A program made the translations under genes and the position numbers. This document shows positions 36,931 through 61,190 of a DNA stretch of 64,000 nt, one piece after another. The notes under the pieces are model-generated. The model ran no database searches, had not been told where the DNA came from, and saw only the letters and a program-made list of their open reading frames with translations. This DNA is from an uncultured Planctomycetales bacterium (GTDB lineage Bacteria; Omnitrophota; Gorgyraeia; Zapsychrales; JANLHA01): positions 238,592 through 302,591 of the forward strand of contig CAZAXH010000001.1 in the NCBI GenBank assembly GCA_964489065.1, written 5' to 3'. Positions within the stretch are counted from its first letter, which is position 1. Every line of letters starts with the position of its first letter.

Positions 36931-37004
36931 TTTTTAATAACAGGCCTGGTAGGATTCGAACCTACAACACACGGTTTTGGAGACCGTTGCTCTGCCAGTT
37001 GGAG
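36931..37004 (-). tRNA. tRNA-Trp (anticodon CCA); 3' CCA not encoded
   Basis: Cloverleaf drawn by hand: acceptor AGGCCUG/CAGGCCU, D stem GCUC/GAGC, anticodon loop CU-CCA-AA, T loop TTCGAAT. Confidence 0.85.
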
Positions 37005-37069
37005 CTACAGGCCTATTTTACCCCGTGTCTGAAAAGGGTTCAGCGTACACCGCCTGATGTAAAATAAAA

Positions 37070-37243: not shown

Positions 37244-37316
37244 AGCCCCCGACCGGACTTGAACCGGTGACCCCGTCCTTACCAAGGACGTGCTCTACCG
37301 GCTGAGCTACAGGGGC
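37244..37316 (-). tRNA. tRNA-Thr (anticodon GGU)
   Basis: Acceptor GCCCCUG/CGGGGGC, anticodon stem CGUCC/GGACG with loop UU-GGU-AA, T loop TTCAAGT. Confidence 0.85.
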
Positions 37317-53970: not shown

Positions 53971-54150
53971 AAAAAAAAATCTGTCCTTCTTCAAGAGGGA
54001 CAGATCACTATTTATGCCTATATCTTTCCTGATGGCAACTGGCTGCCCTCTTTCGGCCGGAACTCCGCCTCCTGTAGGGCCCTATAGCTTTGTGTCCCAT
54101 CCTTACGAATGGTTTACCTTTTGCATCACCTGATTGTCAAGTCTACTGAA
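53971..54150 (-). ncRNA. Candidate ~170-nt small RNA transcription unit with a promoter and intrinsic terminator but no ORF
   Basis: A TTGACA-18-TATACT promoter at 54151-54180 drives ~170 nt of noncoding sequence. It ends in the hairpin UCUGUCC-11 nt-GGACAGA followed by U9 (53971-54004). Confidence 0.35.
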
Positions 54151-54180
54151 AGTATACAACCCGCCTACTTAAAATGTCAA
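54151..54180 (-). promoter_or_regulatory. Sigma70-type promoter (TTGACA-18-TATACT) 18 nt downstream of the coiled-coil gene stop
   Basis: It uses the same hexamers as the tRNA operon promoter at 37463-37491. Confidence 0.45.
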
Positions 54181-54197: not shown

Positions 54198-55772
54198 TCA
54201 TTTCCGACGAAGCCCCTTATCCCGAGCTTTTAAAAGCCCCCCGACTTTTTTCTGCAGCCCCTGATTTTCGCGCTGCAGGACCTTCAAATAGTCATTCAAC
54301 TGCGTTTCTTCCCGGGAAAAACTTTCCGCGGCTTTCCGCTCTTCTTCATAACGGGCTTCAATAATCGACAGGGAGCTCGTCAGAACCGCCTCTCTTAATT
54401 GTAAAGCCTCCACGTCCCTTTTCAGTTTCTGACTTTCAGAAACCGGCACCGGGGCGTTATTATCTTCTTCATCCGGGACCCAAGAGGCCTCCGCGGGCTC
54501 GTCCAGATCAATATCCTCCAGAAGCCGCGTCAATTCTTCTTTGATCTCCTGCGCGGACGGCGAAGCCCCCTGGCCCTTCTGGGCTCTCTGACAATCGGCC
54601 TGCAAAGCAGCAATCTCTTTTCCCAGCAACTTTTCTTTCTTGCGATAAGCCTTGGTTTGAATCTGTCCCTTTCGAATAGACAGGTTCAAATCGTCGATAT
54701 CGTCTGCCAATTGTTCCCGGGAAACGGCCCATGAAGCGGAAGACGGAGATGGGATCCAAAAAGCCGCCGCGTCCTGCAAAGGAAGCCTTTCGCTCAAAAC
54801 CTGTTTTTTCCTCCTCAACAGATCCGTTTCCTCCGCCAGGACCCGGCGGAAAATAACCGCCTGTTTTTCCTGCTGCCGCGAGGCGACGCGAACAACCTCC
54901 TGCAGGTCCTGGATATCAGCAAAAATTTTCTCTAACTGCTCCTTATCACTCCGCAGCCGCGCAATATCCTCTTGAAGACCGGCTAACGCCGCCTTGTCTT
55001 TAAGGGCGGCTGTCTCCCGTTGCTGGTTGAACTTTTCCAAAGTCCCTTCCGCGGCCGACAAACGGCCTTGACTCTCCGCCACCCTCGGCAGCCAGGCCTC
55101 CTTTTGGGACTTTAATTCCTCCGTCCGGTTTTTTTGCGACGATATTTTTTGTTGAAGCTTGCGGACACTCTCTTTTCTCCTGTCAATATCGTTTCGCAAA
55201 GCATCACACCGCGCGATCAACGCCTCCTTCTCTTCCTGTTTGTCTCTCTGTAGCGGTTGCGCACTCTTTTGCTGAAGGCGTTTCTGAAAAAAAGACACTT
55301 CCTCTTGCAGCAACTGGGCTTCCTCCTGAAGGCGTTTCTGCTTGTCAAGCATGACGCTCATTTGCACTTCTTTATCGTCCCGGTTCACATCATGATTTTG
55401 CCCTGCTTTCCGTAAGGCCTCCAGATCCTTCAGCAAATTATCCCGGTCTTCCTCCTGCAAGGTCAGGGCCTCCCGCAGAACCTTTTGATCCGCAAGAAGC
55501 TGATCCCTCTCCTGCTGAAACCCGGCCAGATCTTGCTCATATCGCTCAAGGGCCTGGCGCAAAGCCTTATTCTTCTCTCCCATCTGCGTGTTCTTCCGTA
55601 AGGCTTCCCCCATCGCCTCTTTCAGATCCCGGACAGCGGCCGCCAGCATCTGTTCGGCGGGCGCCGCCGGCTCAGCCGCTTCCAACTCCTGTGTGGCGGC
55701 CTGCTGCGGAAGGCAGAGCCCCCACACGCCGGCCAATACAAAAAAAGCATATTTGCGCAGAACCACAGACAT
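54198..55772 (-). CDS. Secreted long coiled-coil protein of unknown function within the pilus operon
   Basis: 524 aa. N-terminal signal peptide (MSVVLRKYAFFVLAGVWGLCLPQQAATQ), then ~480 aa of E/Q/K/R/L/A-rich heptad-like sequence. It starts 44 nt after the pilC stop. Confidence 0.6.
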   Translation of the reverse strand: MSVVLRKYAFFVLAGVWGLCLPQQAATQELEAAEPAAPAEQMLAAAVRDLKEAMGEALRKNTQMGEKNKALRQALERYEQDLAGFQQERDQLLADQKVLREALTLQEEDRDNLLKDLEALRKAGQNHDVNRDDKEVQMSVMLDKQKRLQEEAQLLQEEVSFFQKRLQQKSAQPLQRDKQEEKEALIARCDALRNDIDRRKESVRKLQQKISSQKNRTEELKSQKEAWLPRVAESQGRLSAAEGTLEKFNQQRETAALKDKAALAGLQEDIARLRSDKEQLEKIFADIQDLQEVVRVASRQQEKQAVIFRRVLAEETDLLRRKKQVLSERLPLQDAAAFWIPSPSSASWAVSREQLADDIDDLNLSIRKGQIQTKAYRKKEKLLGKEIAALQADCQRAQKGQGASPSAQEIKEELTRLLEDIDLDEPAEASWVPDEEDNNAPVPVSESQKLKRDVEALQLREAVLTSSLSIIEARYEEERKAAESFSREETQLNDYLKVLQRENQGLQKKVGGLLKARDKGLRRK

Positions 55773-57225: not shown

Positions 57226-58935
57226 TCAATCATTGGATGTGATCCTCAAAACTTCATCGAGCGTCGTCTCTCCGTCACACAATTTCTGCAGGCCGTCTTC
57301 CCAAAGCGTCAGCATGCCGAGTTTTTTACGGGCATATTCCTTTATTTCGTCGGAAGACTTTCCCAGAATCAGCATCTCGCGGACATGATCATCAAGCGGC
57401 ATCATTTCCGTGACCCCCAATCTCCCGTGAAAACCGGTGTGCCGGCAGGAATCGCATCCCTTTCCATGATAAAAAACCCGGTCCTTCTTGACAGGGATGC
57501 CCAACTCCCTTAAGACTTTATCCGGGATGTCCATCACCTCCTTGCAACGGGGGCAAATTCTCCGGCACAATCGCTGTGCACAGACCAGCACCAGGCTGGA
57601 TGACACCAGGAAAGGCTCCACTCCCATATCCACCAGGCGAGTCAGCGCTCCGGCCGCATCATTCGTATGCAGCGTTGAATAGACCATCTGCCCCGTTAAA
57701 GACGCCTTGATGGCGATATCTGCGGTTTCGTAATCACGGATCTCCCCCACCATCACAATATCCGGACTCTGCCGGAGAATCGCTTTTAACCCTTCGGCGA
57801 ACGTCAGCCCGATATCCGGCTTCACCTGAATCTGCGTCAAGCCATCCACGACATATTCAACCGGGTCTTCAATCGTAATAATATTTTTATCCACCTTATT
57901 CAATTCATTAATAATCGAATACAGGGTCGTGGATTTACCGCTTCCGGTCGGCCCGGTCACCAGGATCATCCCGAACGGCTGGGCGATCGCGTCCTGAAGC
58001 TTAAGCACCGACGCCCCGGAGAACCCAAGCCCGTCCAAACCGATGCGGAGGTTTTTCTTGTCCAGAACCCGCAGGACTATTTTCTGCCCGAAACTCGTCG
58101 GCAGAAGAGAAACACGGAAATCCACCTCTTGGTTGTTGACCCGCATCTTAAAACGGCCGTCCTGGGGCACCTGGGTGGCCGTGATATCCAGCCGGGACAT
58201 AATTTTGATACGGACAATAATGGCATTTTGGTTTTCCTTAGGGATTTTCATCGCGTGAACCAACGTCCCGTCAATCCGGTAACGGACACGCACGCAGTCC
58301 AGCATGGGTTCAACATGAATATCCGAGGCGCGCTGCTTGATCGCTTCACGGATGGCCAGGTTCACCAGGCGGATGATCGGCGCCTGCTCCCCCTCATCCG
58401 CCATCATCTCCGAATCAGTGACCAGCTCGCTGTCACTGATAATTTCCAGCTCTCCCACATCGATATCTTTACTGACGTCCTGAACCGAGTTGGAAATCTT
58501 GCTGCCGTAATAGGTTTCAAGCGCATGCAGGATGTCGGATTCCGTGCTCATCACGACGTCCACGTCCTTGCCTGTCAAATTCTTCAGATCATCAATCGCA
58601 AAAATATTCAGAGGGTCCGCCATCGCGATCGTCACAGTCTTCTGCATCTGGGATATCGGGAGGATCCGGTATTGGCGGGCCACCCTTTCGGGAATCGCGT
58701 CTTTTAAAGAAGGATCGATTTTGTATTTTTTAAGATTAATAAACGGGATATGCAATTCCCGGACCAGCAAAACCATCAGGTCCTCTTCTTTGATCAGCCC
58801 CTTTTCGATCAGGGCCCGGTCCAGGCTGATATTTTTGCTCTTCTGCAATTCTATCGCTTCATCCAGATCCTCTTTTTTGATTTTGAGGCTCTCAACAAGC
58901 GTTTGAATAATTTTTGTCTTGAGTGGTTGTGACAT
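57226..58935 (-). CDS. pilB: Type IV pilus assembly ATPase PilB/GspE family (paralog 2)
   Basis: 569 aa. T2SSE_N domain, Walker A GPTGSGKSTT, and tetracysteine CPRCK...CDSC. Confidence 0.85.
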   Translation of the reverse strand: MSQPLKTKIIQTLVESLKIKKEDLDEAIELQKSKNISLDRALIEKGLIKEEDLMVLLVRELHIPFINLKKYKIDPSLKDAIPERVARQYRILPISQMQKTVTIAMADPLNIFAIDDLKNLTGKDVDVVMSTESDILHALETYYGSKISNSVQDVSKDIDVGELEIISDSELVTDSEMMADEGEQAPIIRLVNLAIREAIKQRASDIHVEPMLDCVRVRYRIDGTLVHAMKIPKENQNAIIVRIKIMSRLDITATQVPQDGRFKMRVNNQEVDFRVSLLPTSFGQKIVLRVLDKKNLRIGLDGLGFSGASVLKLQDAIAQPFGMILVTGPTGSGKSTTLYSIINELNKVDKNIITIEDPVEYVVDGLTQIQVKPDIGLTFAEGLKAILRQSPDIVMVGEIRDYETADIAIKASLTGQMVYSTLHTNDAAGALTRLVDMGVEPFLVSSSLVLVCAQRLCRRICPRCKEVMDIPDKVLRELGIPVKKDRVFYHGKGCDSCRHTGFHGRLGVTEMMPLDDHVREMLILGKSSDEIKEYARKKLGMLTLWEDGLQKLCDGETTLDEVLRITSND

Positions 58936-58959: not shown

Positions 58960-60726
58960 TCAGTCCGGGGTTTCAGCCGGAGTCTTCTCCAGGGGCTCGT
59001 CAGCCGCAGTGACGCGCAGGACCTCTTCCAGCGTCGTCAGGCCGGCCAGGGCTTTGGCCATGGCATCCTCCCGCATCGTGGTCATACCTTCCCGTCGCCC
59101 CATCATTTTAATCTGCAGTTCCCCGGCCCGCTGTAAAATGCCCTTACGGACCGGCGGCGTAAGGACCAGGATTTCCGAAATACCCACCCGCCCGCTGTAG
59201 CCGGTCTTCAGACAGTTCTTGCATCCTTGTCCGCGGGACAGCCTGATGTCCCCTTTCTTGCCCTGCGCCTTCAACCCCACTTTCTCCGCCATCTCCGGAG
59301 ACAGGACAAATTCTTCCTTGCATTTCGGGCAGATCCGCCGGAGAAGGCGCTGCCCCACGACCGCGATGACGGAGGAACAAATCAGAAACGGTTCCACCCC
59401 CATATTGACCATACGCACAATCGACCCCGCCGCCGTGGTCGTATGCAGGGAACTCACCACGAGATGCCCGGTCAACGCGGCTTTAACCGCAATATCCAGG
59501 GTTTCACTTTCCCGGATTTCTCCAATCATAATGACATCGGGGTCCTGCCTCAAAATAGACCGCAGGGTTGAGGCAAACGTCAGGCCCACGCTGGGTTTCA
59601 CGTTCACCTGGTTCAGTCCCGCCATCTGGTACTCCACGGGATCCTCCACGGTCACAATATTTTTTCCCGGTGAGTCAATATACTTCAAAATCGAATACAG
59701 GGTCGTTGTCTTCCCGCTGCCCGTCGGGCCGCAGGACAGGATCATCCCGTGCGGCTTATCCGCGCATTCCTTCAGCCGGCGCAAAGCCTCCGGCTGAAAC
59801 CCAAGGTTATTGATGTCCACGGCCCCCGCGGATTTATCCAGAACGCGGAGCACGATCTTTTCCCCAAAAATCGTCGGGAGGACATTGACGCGAAAATCAA
59901 CCTCCTTGTTCCCGGACAGGATCGTCCGGAACCGCCCGTCCTGCGGAATGCGCCGCTCCGAGATATCCAAATTAGACACGACTTTCAGCCGGGAAATAAT
60001 CGCCAGGTGCAGGGCCTTGGACATCTGGTCAATTTCGCGGATGACCCCGTCCACCCGGTAACGGATGCGCAATGTTTTTTCCAGAGGCTCAATGAAAACG
60101 TCGCTGGCTTTCGCCATAACGGCCTGTTGGATGATGGTGTCCGTTAATTTGATCAAAGGGGCGTCCTGGGAAATATCCTCGACCGAAACTTTTTCCGAAT
60201 CCAGGTCCTGCTCTTTGACCAGCTCCAGTTCTTCGGCGTCCCGCATGTCCTTAATGATGCTTTCCAAAGTTTCTCCCGACTCCACCGGAGAACCCTGTGT
60301 GTAACAGCGCTCAATAGCATCCGCCAGTTGAGTCGAGCGGGCGATGATCGGCGTGATGCTTAACCCCGTCAATGCCTTCACATCATCGATAACAAAAATG
60401 TTCAAAGGATCAGCCATGGCGAGGGTCAGGTTCCCGCCCATTTTGGACACCGGCATGATTTGATATTTCTGCGCCACGTCCCGCGGGATCAGTTTCACGA
60501 CACTGGGATCGATTTTAAGCCGGGAAATATCTATCGGGGGGAGGCCCAATCCTTCGCTGAGGATATGGGTCAAATCATCTTCACTGATCAGGTTCATCCG
60601 GACCAGCACCTGGCTGAGGTCACCGCCAGAGTTCTTCTGTTCCAAGAGAGCCCTGTCCAAATCTTCCTGTTTGATAATATTATCTCTCAACAGGATTTGC
60701 TGTAACCGTTCTTTTAAGGAAAACAT
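58960..60726 (-). CDS. Type IV pilus assembly ATPase PilB/GspE family (paralog 1)
   Basis: 588 aa. T2SSE_N domain, Walker A GPTGSGKTTT, and tetracysteine CPKCK...CKNC. Confidence 0.85.
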   Translation of the reverse strand: MFSLKERLQQILLRDNIIKQEDLDRALLEQKNSGGDLSQVLVRMNLISEDDLTHILSEGLGLPPIDISRLKIDPSVVKLIPRDVAQKYQIMPVSKMGGNLTLAMADPLNIFVIDDVKALTGLSITPIIARSTQLADAIERCYTQGSPVESGETLESIIKDMRDAEELELVKEQDLDSEKVSVEDISQDAPLIKLTDTIIQQAVMAKASDVFIEPLEKTLRIRYRVDGVIREIDQMSKALHLAIISRLKVVSNLDISERRIPQDGRFRTILSGNKEVDFRVNVLPTIFGEKIVLRVLDKSAGAVDINNLGFQPEALRRLKECADKPHGMILSCGPTGSGKTTTLYSILKYIDSPGKNIVTVEDPVEYQMAGLNQVNVKPSVGLTFASTLRSILRQDPDVIMIGEIRESETLDIAVKAALTGHLVVSSLHTTTAAGSIVRMVNMGVEPFLICSSVIAVVGQRLLRRICPKCKEEFVLSPEMAEKVGLKAQGKKGDIRLSRGQGCKNCLKTGYSGRVGISEILVLTPPVRKGILQRAGELQIKMMGRREGMTTMREDAMAKALAGLTTLEEVLRVTAADEPLEKTPAETPD

Positions 60727-60734
60727 GACGTTCC

Positions 60735-61190
60735 TTAGGAGGTGGTGGTGCTGCGATATCTCTTAATCGCTTCTTTAATGTCGCTAGCCGTTGAAACAAA
60801 CGTCTGAACACTGCAGCCGGTCAGCATTTCAATATCTTCCACGGCGATACGATTCAGGGGATTCGCCATGGCGACCGTTAAACTTTTTCCGATCTTATCA
60901 ATGGGGATCAAACAGTATTTTTTGCAGACGCCTTCCGGAACCGCGTTGAGGACCTCCTGATCAATCTCATAATTCGACAAAGGAAGGAAAGGGAATCCAT
61001 ACTGACAGGTGAGGGCCTGGGCGATATCTTCCTCCGTGGCGAACTTCAGCTCGACCAGAATTTCGCCGATAAGCCCGCCTTTTTCGTTTTGATAGGCCAT
61101 GGCCATGGCGACTTGCTCCCGGTCAATAACGCCTTTCTCAACGAGCAGTTCCCCCAAATGTTTATTGGATGTGCGTTTGTAATCTTTCAT
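60735..61190 (-). CDS. Stand-alone T2SSE_N / MshEN-like domain protein (151 aa)
   Basis: KHLGELLVEKGVIDREQVAMAMAYQ fits the RLGxxLLxxGLLxxxxLxxxLxxQ-type motif, with G and Q conserved. The rest resembles the N1 domain of GspE/PilB (IPIDKIGKSLTVAMANPLN). Confidence 0.6.
   Translation of the reverse strand: MKDYKRTSNKHLGELLVEKGVIDREQVAMAMAYQNEKGGLIGEILVELKFATEEDIAQALTCQYGFPFLPLSNYEIDQEVLNAVPEGVCKKYCLIPIDKIGKSLTVAMANPLNRIAVEDIEMLTGCSVQTFVSTASDIKEAIKRYRSTTTS

Follow-up and report, generated by a model that had tools for sequence, protein, structure and literature searches.

The window examined here is a stretch of 64,000 nucleotides (nt) from an uncultured bacterium whose GTDB lineage is Omnitrophota (GenBank assembly GCA_964489065.1, contig CAZAXH010000001.1, positions 238,592 to 302,591), and the element under study is a short unit on its minus strand that separates a gene for a coiled-coil protein from pilA, the gene of the type IV major pilin. 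In the direction of transcription, the unit comprises a promoter (P1, 54180-54151), an RNA domain matching the class I aptamer (c-di-GMP-I or GEMM-I) for cyclic dimeric guanosine monophosphate (c-di-GMP) at 54128-54030, an intrinsic terminator (54005-53971), and a second promoter (P2, 53962-53935), after which come a 5′ untranslated region (UTR) and pilA itself (53789-53397; 130 amino acids, MNRKG|FTLVEIMIVV..., with a PF07963 N_methyl match of 34.3 bits). The aptamer lies 25 nt 3′ of promoter P1 and the terminator 25 nt 3′ of the closing aptamer stem; after another 181 nt comes pilA, in the same orientation. An earlier sequence-only reading of the window had seen in this segment an orphan transcription unit for a candidate small RNA (sRNA).

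Conservation was assessed in two sets of loci. A PilC search of species-representative genomes yielded 80 loci, nearly all labelled Candidatus Omnitrophota or belonging to mislabelled metagenome-assembled genomes of the same group (top identity, 99%); aptamer copies in this genome set were located with a loose core pattern, which about 33 of the 80 loci carried, and base-level counts refer to 35 aptamer copies. A scan of metagenomes with the core pattern, which was not biased to pilin loci, yielded 120 loci with 114 distinct copies. Some 150 related copies in all share one layout, in which a TTGACA-N17-TATACT promoter is followed by the aptamer and then by a hairpin with a U-tract. T-runs were counted in the 100 metagenomic copies whose downstream sequence was 260 nt or longer, and downstream genes in the 92 copies with 700 nt or more.

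Promoters and terminators were scanned over 2.2 kb around the unit, with shuffled-sequence controls. Promoter P1 (TTGACA-18 nt-TATACT), which the sequence-only reading had described as near-consensus, matched the consensus at 11 of 12 positions and was the top promoter-like site in the scan, which returned 8 such sites compared with 2.2 ± 1.5 in shuffles; its predicted transcription start lies near 54144. About 30 of the 35 genome copies had a site of the same type (TTGACA-N16-18-TATACT) starting from 50-62 nt 5′ of the core, and 69 of 107 metagenomic copies had a promoter site with at least 10 of 12 matches no more than 100 nt 5′ of the aptamer. The terminator, which serves as the putative expression platform, is a hairpin at 54005-53979 (approximately −11.4 kcal/mol) composed of UCUGUCC (54004-53998), an 11-nt loop, and GGACAGA (53986-53980), followed by the nine U residues (53979-53971) that had been noted before; an A54005-U53979 pair extends the stem, and RNAfold added three further inner pairs. 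A simple scanner listed this hairpin only in its plus-strand form, and terminator-like sites in the region stood at the chance level (3 versus 2.9 in shuffles). The terminator was judged to be real not on this local count, but because a T-run is conserved behind the aptamer, lying within 260 nt of its 3′ side in 93 of the 100 metagenomic copies. The 2.2-kb scan found no terminator on the stretch from the stop codon of the coiled-coil gene (54198) to the aptamer, and no other one from 53971 to the start codon of pilA.

Promoter P2 (TTGACA-16 nt-TAGCAT, with a TG-extended −10 element; 10 of 12 matches) lies 8 nt past the U-tract. About 24 of the 35 genome copies had a comparable site (TTGACA-N16-18-TAnnAT), often with an extended −10 TG, past the terminator and ahead of the pilin start codon at variable distances, and P2-type sites were present, again at variable distances, in 25 of 37 pilin-linked metagenomic copies. 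This conservation supports the earlier claim that pilA has a promoter of its own, and the pilin-linked architecture thus reads promoter P1, aptamer, terminator, promoter P2, a UTR of approximately 140-190 nt, and the pilin gene. In six relatives (L013, L017, L032, L035, L042, and L046), a perfect Shine-Dalgarno-like AAAGGAGGTG was observed within the spacer of the P2-type promoter that separates the terminator from the pilin gene. The statement that the segment holds no open reading frame (ORF) of 31 amino acids or more was correct for the minus strand, on which the longest ORF within the unit has 30 amino acids (54100-54008), and incorrect for the plus strand, on which mechanical ORFs of 50, 62, and 51 amino acids run across the element. 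The small ORFs of either strand were rejected as genes, as they are not conserved in relatives.

Identity and structure of the aptamer

A scan of the whole window at Rfam gathering thresholds returned only c-di-GMP-I (RF01051) at 54128-54031 of the minus strand, together with two tRNAs. The match covered model positions 1-87 of 87 with a score of 58.4 bits (E = 7.7e-9) against a gathering score of 35. A weak regular-expression match at 26638-26591 lay within a long ORF and was unreported by Rfam, and it was treated as a chance match for these reasons. In the Rfam alignment, stem P1 is formed by 54128-54124 and 54034-54030, stem P1b by 54112-54107 and 54102-54097 around a GUAA tetraloop of the GNRA type (54106-54103), and stem P2, which has a variable tip, by 54089-54078 and 54047-54037. 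The CCAUUC-GUAA-GGAUGG hairpin that had been picked out from the sequence is indeed present, at 54112-54097, and corresponds to stem P1b. The alignment also places the G21-C46 and U22-A45 pairs at 54117/54092 and 54116/54093, respectively, and the bases equivalent to G20, A47, and C92 at 54118, 54091, and 54035. In the crystal-structure literature, these three positions (Vc2 numbering) are the bases that contact the ligand.

The relatives retained this structure with compensatory changes. Where the consensus has C22-G45, the window has the compensatory pair U22-A45, and among the 35 genome copies this pair was U-A in 30, C-G in 5, and mismatched in none. The G/A/C triad at positions 20, 47, and 92 was found in 34 of the 35 copies and a GNRA loop on P1b in all 35, and stem P2 with its conserved A-G bulge aligned to the model. 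In the c-di-GMP-I family, this tetraloop docks into a receptor within P2. De novo folding of the aptamer set with RNAalifold gave a non-native consensus and was consequently replaced by counts on the Rfam-derived structure, with slid registers and 500 shuffles as controls. Across 22 aptamer pairs in 30 diverse copies, 92.9% of cells were paired compared with 27-46% in slid registers; compensatory changes were present in 10 pairs, and the covariation value of 0.265 (0.156 in shuffles) was reached by 0 of 500 shuffles. All 12 aptamers of ten diverse relatives scored above a gathering score of the Rfam clan. In score, architecture, GNRA loop, and contact bases, the window aptamer matches established members of the c-di-GMP-I family, such as Vc2 of Vibrio cholerae and Cd1 in the flgB leader of Clostridioides difficile. 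We regard it as practically certain that the segment at 54128-54030 is a canonical class I c-di-GMP riboswitch aptamer, with c-di-GMP as its predicted ligand.

This assignment alters part of the sequence-only reading and leaves part of it standing. An unclassified trans-acting sRNA is contradicted by the Rfam scan, a check that this reading had itself proposed, with its clear match to c-di-GMP-I, which is a family of cis-regulatory leaders; it is further weakened by the occurrence of the same module immediately 5′ of a wide range of genes in relatives. The terminated RNA of approximately 170 nt may still have a secondary role in trans. The broader proposal of a regulatory RNA that is structured, is associated with the pilus, and has a promoter and an intrinsic terminator of its own was borne out.

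A variant aptamer with another ligand, either of the c-di-GMP-I-GGC type (RF03167) or of the GEMM-Ib type sensing cyclic GMP-AMP (cGAMP), is very improbable, although the scores alone invite the question. RF03167 belongs to the same clan as RF01051 and scores nearly equally; in a sensitive scan, it was the top clan match of the window (57.1 bits), several relatives exceeded its gathering score of 59 bits, and one relative (L045) carries A at position 20. However, the window remains below that gathering score, whereas it passes that of RF01051 easily, and the RF03167 consensus has G at the position of Vc2 A47 (GGGACGCGAA), whereas A occupies this position in the window (A54091) and in 35 of the 35 genome copies. 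RF03167 was rejected on these two grounds, and the A at position 47 identifies the window aptamer as one of the canonical type. In the GEMM-Ib riboswitches of Geobacter, which sense 3′3′-cGAMP and are said to be linked to extracellular-appendage and electron-transfer genes, the defining change is reportedly G20 to A20 (both points being attributed to Kellenberger et al. 2015 and Nelson et al. 2015). The overall GEMM-I fold is common to both, but position 20 is G in the window (G54118) and in 34 of the 35 copies, and a GEMM-Ib identity was rejected for the window.

Two side observations concern the relatives. The copy at L045:15520-15612 (CAYOSQ010000002.1) is the sole one of the 35 with A at the G20 equivalent (UUAAAAGUAAACC), giving the triad A20/A47/C92, the reported signature of cGAMP-sensing GEMM-Ib riboswitches. 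Many of the aptamers of L010, L011, L019, L024, L025, and L042 were assigned to RF03167 by clan competition (59.7-63.1 bits), and their base 47 is A rather than G, which suggests that annotation pipelines may mislabel such aptamers.

The 16-nt near-palindrome CTATAGGGCCCTACAG, which the sequence-only reading had considered as a possible protein-binding operator, is present at 54087-54072. Its near-perfect symmetry and its placement between two promoters would suit a DNA operator for a regulator of pilus genes. The site, however, lies inside the aptamer, where the Rfam alignment assigns it to the 5′ strand of stem P2 and the start of the variable P2 tip, and its conservation is accounted for by RNA pairing, since stem P2 shows compensatory changes. 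Its outer positions vary even in close relatives (L004 has CTAGAGGGCCCTACCA), with only AGGGCCCT or AGGGTCCC kept; across the 35 genome copies, the palindrome shrinks to AGGGCCCU or AGGGUCCC, and nothing of it beyond AGGGCCCU is kept. As its symmetry is lost in relatives, an operator function can be dismissed with hardly any reservation.

Linkage of the module to pilin and other genes

The arrangement of the module in relatives points to a leader acting in cis. In the approximately 33 genome loci with an aptamer, it was always on the pilC strand and always downstream of pilC, and every locus with enough sequence had a T-run 100-210 nt past the core start and a pilin gene (GFTLVEIMIVVAIIALLAAIAIPNLL) starting 260-505 nt past it. 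The gene 5′ of the module varied between loci, which indicates that the module travels with the pilin gene. Tandem pilin genes were observed at L011:4839-5709 and L019:3869-5091, each gene lying behind a separate promoter, aptamer, and terminator, an arrangement indicating that the whole module is duplicated together with the pilin gene in these two loci.

The metagenome set extended this pattern to other targets. Of the 92 copies with enough downstream sequence, 33 preceded a pilin gene and 59 preceded other genes; in the non-pilin copies, the ORF started approximately 60 nt past the T-run, leaving no room for a second promoter. The occurrence of the aptamer-terminator module directly before varied genes, combined with the strict pilin linkage, argues for a cis-acting leader, and we consider it highly likely, from these genomic arrangements, that the riboswitch regulates pilA in cis. 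The sequence-only reading had named, as an outcome that would speak against a separate sRNA, a longer pilA mRNA that has the segment as its 5′ leader and continues past the terminator; such a leader, with predicted read-through into pilA, is the most likely situation.

The genes behind the non-pilin copies were diverse. The commonest, present in approximately 20 copies (L087, L094, L095, L111, L138, L139, L144, and approximately 13 further metagenome loci), encodes a protein of approximately 200 amino acids (MIEKLVTSKTRIKILKLFLSHIDDRYYLRELER...) that contains a hydrophobic segment, lacks a Pfam match, and may be a regulator under c-di-GMP control. Approximately 10 copies preceded genes for large secreted proteins with a weak right-handed beta-helix match, and the secreted proteins of L100, L103, L132, L140, L146, L147, L151, and L160 start with ...ATYYVRxDGGTAxQCTG and have up to about 1100 amino acids. 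Adhesin-like proteins are likewise among the products. Further genes encode a TPS-domain protein (L101), a PAS protein, response regulators, and a C39-like peptidase. GEMM riboswitches are associated with motility and membrane genes, and the pili, adhesin-like, and signalling genes behind the Omnitrophota module fit this association.

Predicted polarity of the switch

The terminator 5′ arm UGUCCCUCUU (54002-53993) has two alternative partners, namely the 3′ arm of the terminator and the aptamer segment AGGAUGGGACA (54103-54093), which comprises the last loop base and the 3′ strand of P1b, the GAC junction, and A45 and would form the upstream half of a predicted antiterminator. In stepwise folding of the nascent RNA, an aptamer-like fold persisted until the terminator 5′ arm emerged; in the RNA ending at 53990, the minimum-energy fold paired 54103-54093 with 54002-53993 through 10 pairs and one bulge, and once the 3′ arm had been made, the aptamer and the terminator again formed the minimum-energy state. 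This pairing of 54103-54093 is incompatible with a ligand-bound aptamer. In the window, only 5% of shuffled arms invaded the aptamer likewise.

The same complementarity recurred in relatives. Their 5′ arm is typically CCUAUUCUU, the complement, with wobble pairs included, of AAGGAUGGG at the same aptamer site. This site was the best partner of the arm in 25 of 33 genome copies and in 67 of 74 metagenomic copies (37.9 for shuffled arms), including copies before unrelated genes, and in an alignment anchored on each terminator's own stem, the antiterminator register was 79% paired compared with 45-57% for most slid registers. Shuffle z-scores of the arm-aptamer duplex energy were weak (median, −0.8), and the positional test is the more informative of the two. 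A linker of 10-43 nt, never an overlap, separated the 3′ strand of stem P1 from the terminator. As the terminator is clear of this strand, the usual design of an ON switch is absent, and as its 5′ arm is conserved as the complement of an essential aptamer segment, an OFF switch is predicted. On the strength of this complementarity, we lean, by a modest margin, toward an OFF switch in which c-di-GMP would cause termination. A class I precedent is Cd1 of C. difficile, a terminator-based OFF switch (PMC6366702); the expression platform is an intrinsic terminator in both, and the window is predicted to have the same polarity.

Several observations weigh against this polarity or against a dominant role of the riboswitch. 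The antiterminator helix showed no covariation beyond shuffles, 112 of 500 of which reached the observed value; we attribute this to the near invariance of the aptamer side and to the U/C-rich arm, which pairs through wobble. For the full-length hairpin, the state with terminator and aptamer was more stable than the antiterminator state, with a margin of 3.5 kcal/mol for the window and a median margin of 7.5 kcal/mol for relatives, so the antiterminator would have to act kinetically. The enrichment of nascent folds in the genome set was only moderate (17 of 25 versus 9.7 expected, with stem P1 lost in 10 of 13 cases versus 5.4 expected). The conservation of promoter P2 right after the terminator implies that pilA does not depend on read-through, which weakens the riboswitch as the main control. 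Furthermore, the best-studied pilin riboswitch, the class II switch at C. difficile pilA1, has the opposite polarity (PMC6366702).

The last of these points leads to the converse proposal, in which the same riboswitch is an ON switch and c-di-GMP prevents termination and raises pilin expression, as does the class II switch at C. difficile pilA1. The thermodynamic default without ligand is the terminator state, as would be expected of an unliganded ON switch; c-di-GMP commonly favours adhesion and, in C. difficile, type IV pili as well (PMC6366702), and several of the other genes behind the module encode adhesin-like surface proteins. However, no sequence was found that would let the ligand-bound aptamer sequester either terminator arm, and the terminator starts at the distance from the stem P1 3′ strand given above. 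The nascent-fold partners of the 5′ arm, moreover, lie inside the aptamer rather than in the linker, in a pairing incompatible with the ligand-bound fold. An ON switch is accordingly an unlikely reading, though the least unlikely of the alternatives weighed here.

Returning to the OFF switch, the proposed sequence of events is as follows. RNA polymerase would start at promoter P1 (54180-54151), and the nascent RNA would fold into the c-di-GMP-I aptamer (54128-54030). With c-di-GMP bound, the aptamer would be locked, leaving the 5′ arm (54004-53993) free to pair with the 3′ arm and form the U9 terminator; transcription would then stop near 53971, releasing an RNA of approximately 170 nt and leaving pilA to promoter P2 alone. 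At low c-di-GMP, the 5′ arm would invade the aptamer at 54103-54093 (the P1b 3′ strand and the GGGACA junction), and the resulting antiterminator would allow polymerase to continue through P2 and the approximately 180-nt UTR into pilA, adding a longer mRNA isoform to the output of P2. The gene would therefore have two kinds of input: a basal one from P2 and a c-di-GMP-repressible one from P1, together with any read-in from the upstream pilB-pilC operon. Taken as a whole, the unit is likely to be the 5′ leader of Candidatus Omnitrophota pilA, carrying a c-di-GMP-I riboswitch that works by this OFF-type mechanism, and the riboswitch probably adds a c-di-GMP-repressible share to pilA transcription.

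The conservation of promoter P2 also keeps alive a reading in which the unit yields a stand-alone or dual-function RNA of approximately 170 nt acting in trans, as a buffer or sponge for c-di-GMP or as a base-pairing sRNA in the manner of Listeria SreA, with pilA transcribed from P2. The unit has its own promoter (11 of 12), a strong and thermodynamically favoured U9 terminator, and a conserved pilA promoter directly after it, and a precedent exists in the merRNA of the predatory bacterium Bdellovibrio bacteriovorus, a massively expressed, discrete c-di-GMP-I RNA without a downstream gene that has been proposed to be a ligand sponge rather than a classical cis regulator (PMC3627812); Omnitrophota have also been proposed to be predators or parasites (PMC10066038). 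Both RNAs have a c-di-GMP-I aptamer, and the promoter-to-terminator unit of the window could likewise give a discrete RNA. Whereas merRNA lacks a conserved downstream ORF, a co-oriented gene invariably lies behind the Omnitrophota module, whose terminator arm is complementary to the aptamer. The same-strand linkage to pilin genes was strict in all of the more than 30 genome loci, including the duplicated pairs, the module lies directly before other ORFs without room for a second promoter, which is the classical cis arrangement, and conservation of the 5′ arm as an aptamer complement would be needless for a constitutive terminator. It is doubtful that, in these putatively host-dependent nanobacteria, the P1-aptamer-terminator unit makes mainly a separate c-di-GMP-binding RNA (buffer or trans-acting sRNA), with read-through into pilA secondary and isoform-generating; a stand-alone or dual-function role with pilA left to P2 is, if anything, slightly less probable still.

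Related systems and the pilus locus

Compared with Vc2 and Cd1, the riboswitch described here differs in its host, an uncultured phylum (Omnitrophota), and in its target, a major type IV pilin; in addition, the Omnitrophota pilin copies insert a second conserved promoter and a UTR of approximately 180 nt between the terminator and the gene. A functional parallel is Cdi-2-4 of C. difficile, a class II switch in the pilA1 leader that responds to c-di-GMP as an ON switch and operates through a transcription terminator (PMC6366702). Both are c-di-GMP riboswitches in the leader of a major pilin gene, and both employ a transcription terminator, but Cdi-2-4 belongs to class II, has an unrelated fold, and is ON, whereas the window riboswitch belongs to class I and is predicted to be OFF. 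From the viewpoint of RNA biology, it is an ordinary family member, mildly unusual only in the conserved order of promoter, riboswitch, terminator, and second promoter.

Type IV pili are considered central to the attachment, predation, or symbiosis proposed for Omnitrophota (PMC10066038), and the main genomic survey of these bacteria gives prominence to type IVa pili without any mention of c-di-GMP or riboswitches. A full-text literature search found no work linking Omnitrophota with c-di-GMP riboswitches. This riboswitch instance and its regulon thus appear to be unreported, although the kind of RNA is well known and is flagged by standard Rfam annotation. Across a large part of Omnitrophota, the major pilin gene sits behind a canonical c-di-GMP riboswitch, and the module provides a sequence-based handle on the c-di-GMP regulon of an uncultured phylum. 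The OFF mechanism predicts that pilin transcription would fall at high c-di-GMP.

The locus as a whole is a complete type IVa pilus cluster. Upstream of the riboswitch are three genes whose products have MshEN domains, namely two PilB-like ATPases and a small protein, followed by the genes for PilC and the 524-amino-acid coiled-coil protein; downstream of pilA are PilM, PilN, PilO, and the secretin. The MshEN genes are consecutive on the minus strand (57226-58935 and 58960-60726 for the two T2SSE PilB-like ATPases, and 60735-61190 for a 151-amino-acid MshEN-only protein). MshEN is a known c-di-GMP-binding domain, but the three domains here matched only 8-9 of 12 positions of the c-di-GMP-binding motif. 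The coiled-coil gene (54198-55772, minus strand), between pilC and the riboswitch, encodes a protein that has a signal-like N-terminus but did not match any Pfam family, and the gene at this position differs among relatives.

The pilA gene has GGAGG 8 nt 5′ of its ATG, and its transcription unit is closed by a strong terminator at 53357-53332 on the minus strand (11-bp GC-rich stem, T5) that was found in the 2.2-kb scan. No convincing sigma-54 promoter (GG-N10-GC) for pilA was seen by eye in the UTR, although no formal scan was made, and RNAalifold gave no consensus structure for the pilA 5′ UTR on a rough alignment. An alignment of this region across divergent relatives revealed a conserved motif, AAACCGTCATTATTC, at 53878-53864 of the minus strand. 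In L003-L047, this motif, as AAACCGTCATTATTC(.TT), lies approximately 75-95 nt 5′ of the pilin start codon. Rich in pyrimidines, it is similar to the terminator 5′ arm, and it paired with the Shine-Dalgarno sequence in just 5 of 27 minimum-energy folds.

In approximately 11 of 27 relatives, the minimum-energy fold paired a UCUUCUCUUCUGG-like stretch with CCAGAAAGGAGG, forming a hairpin that would sequester the Shine-Dalgarno sequence. This hairpin lies in the last approximately 80 nt before the ATG in relatives such as L009, L010, L014, L017, and L042, and the corresponding stretch of the window is 53855-53797. Its arms seem to covary (UCUGGA/UCCAGA versus UCUGAAUC/GGUUCAGA), with no RNAalifold support on the rough alignment. 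The exact pilin sequence of the window is also present on a Logan metagenome contig, and the two tRNA genes returned by Rfam lie on the minus strand at 36941-37014 and 37244-37316.

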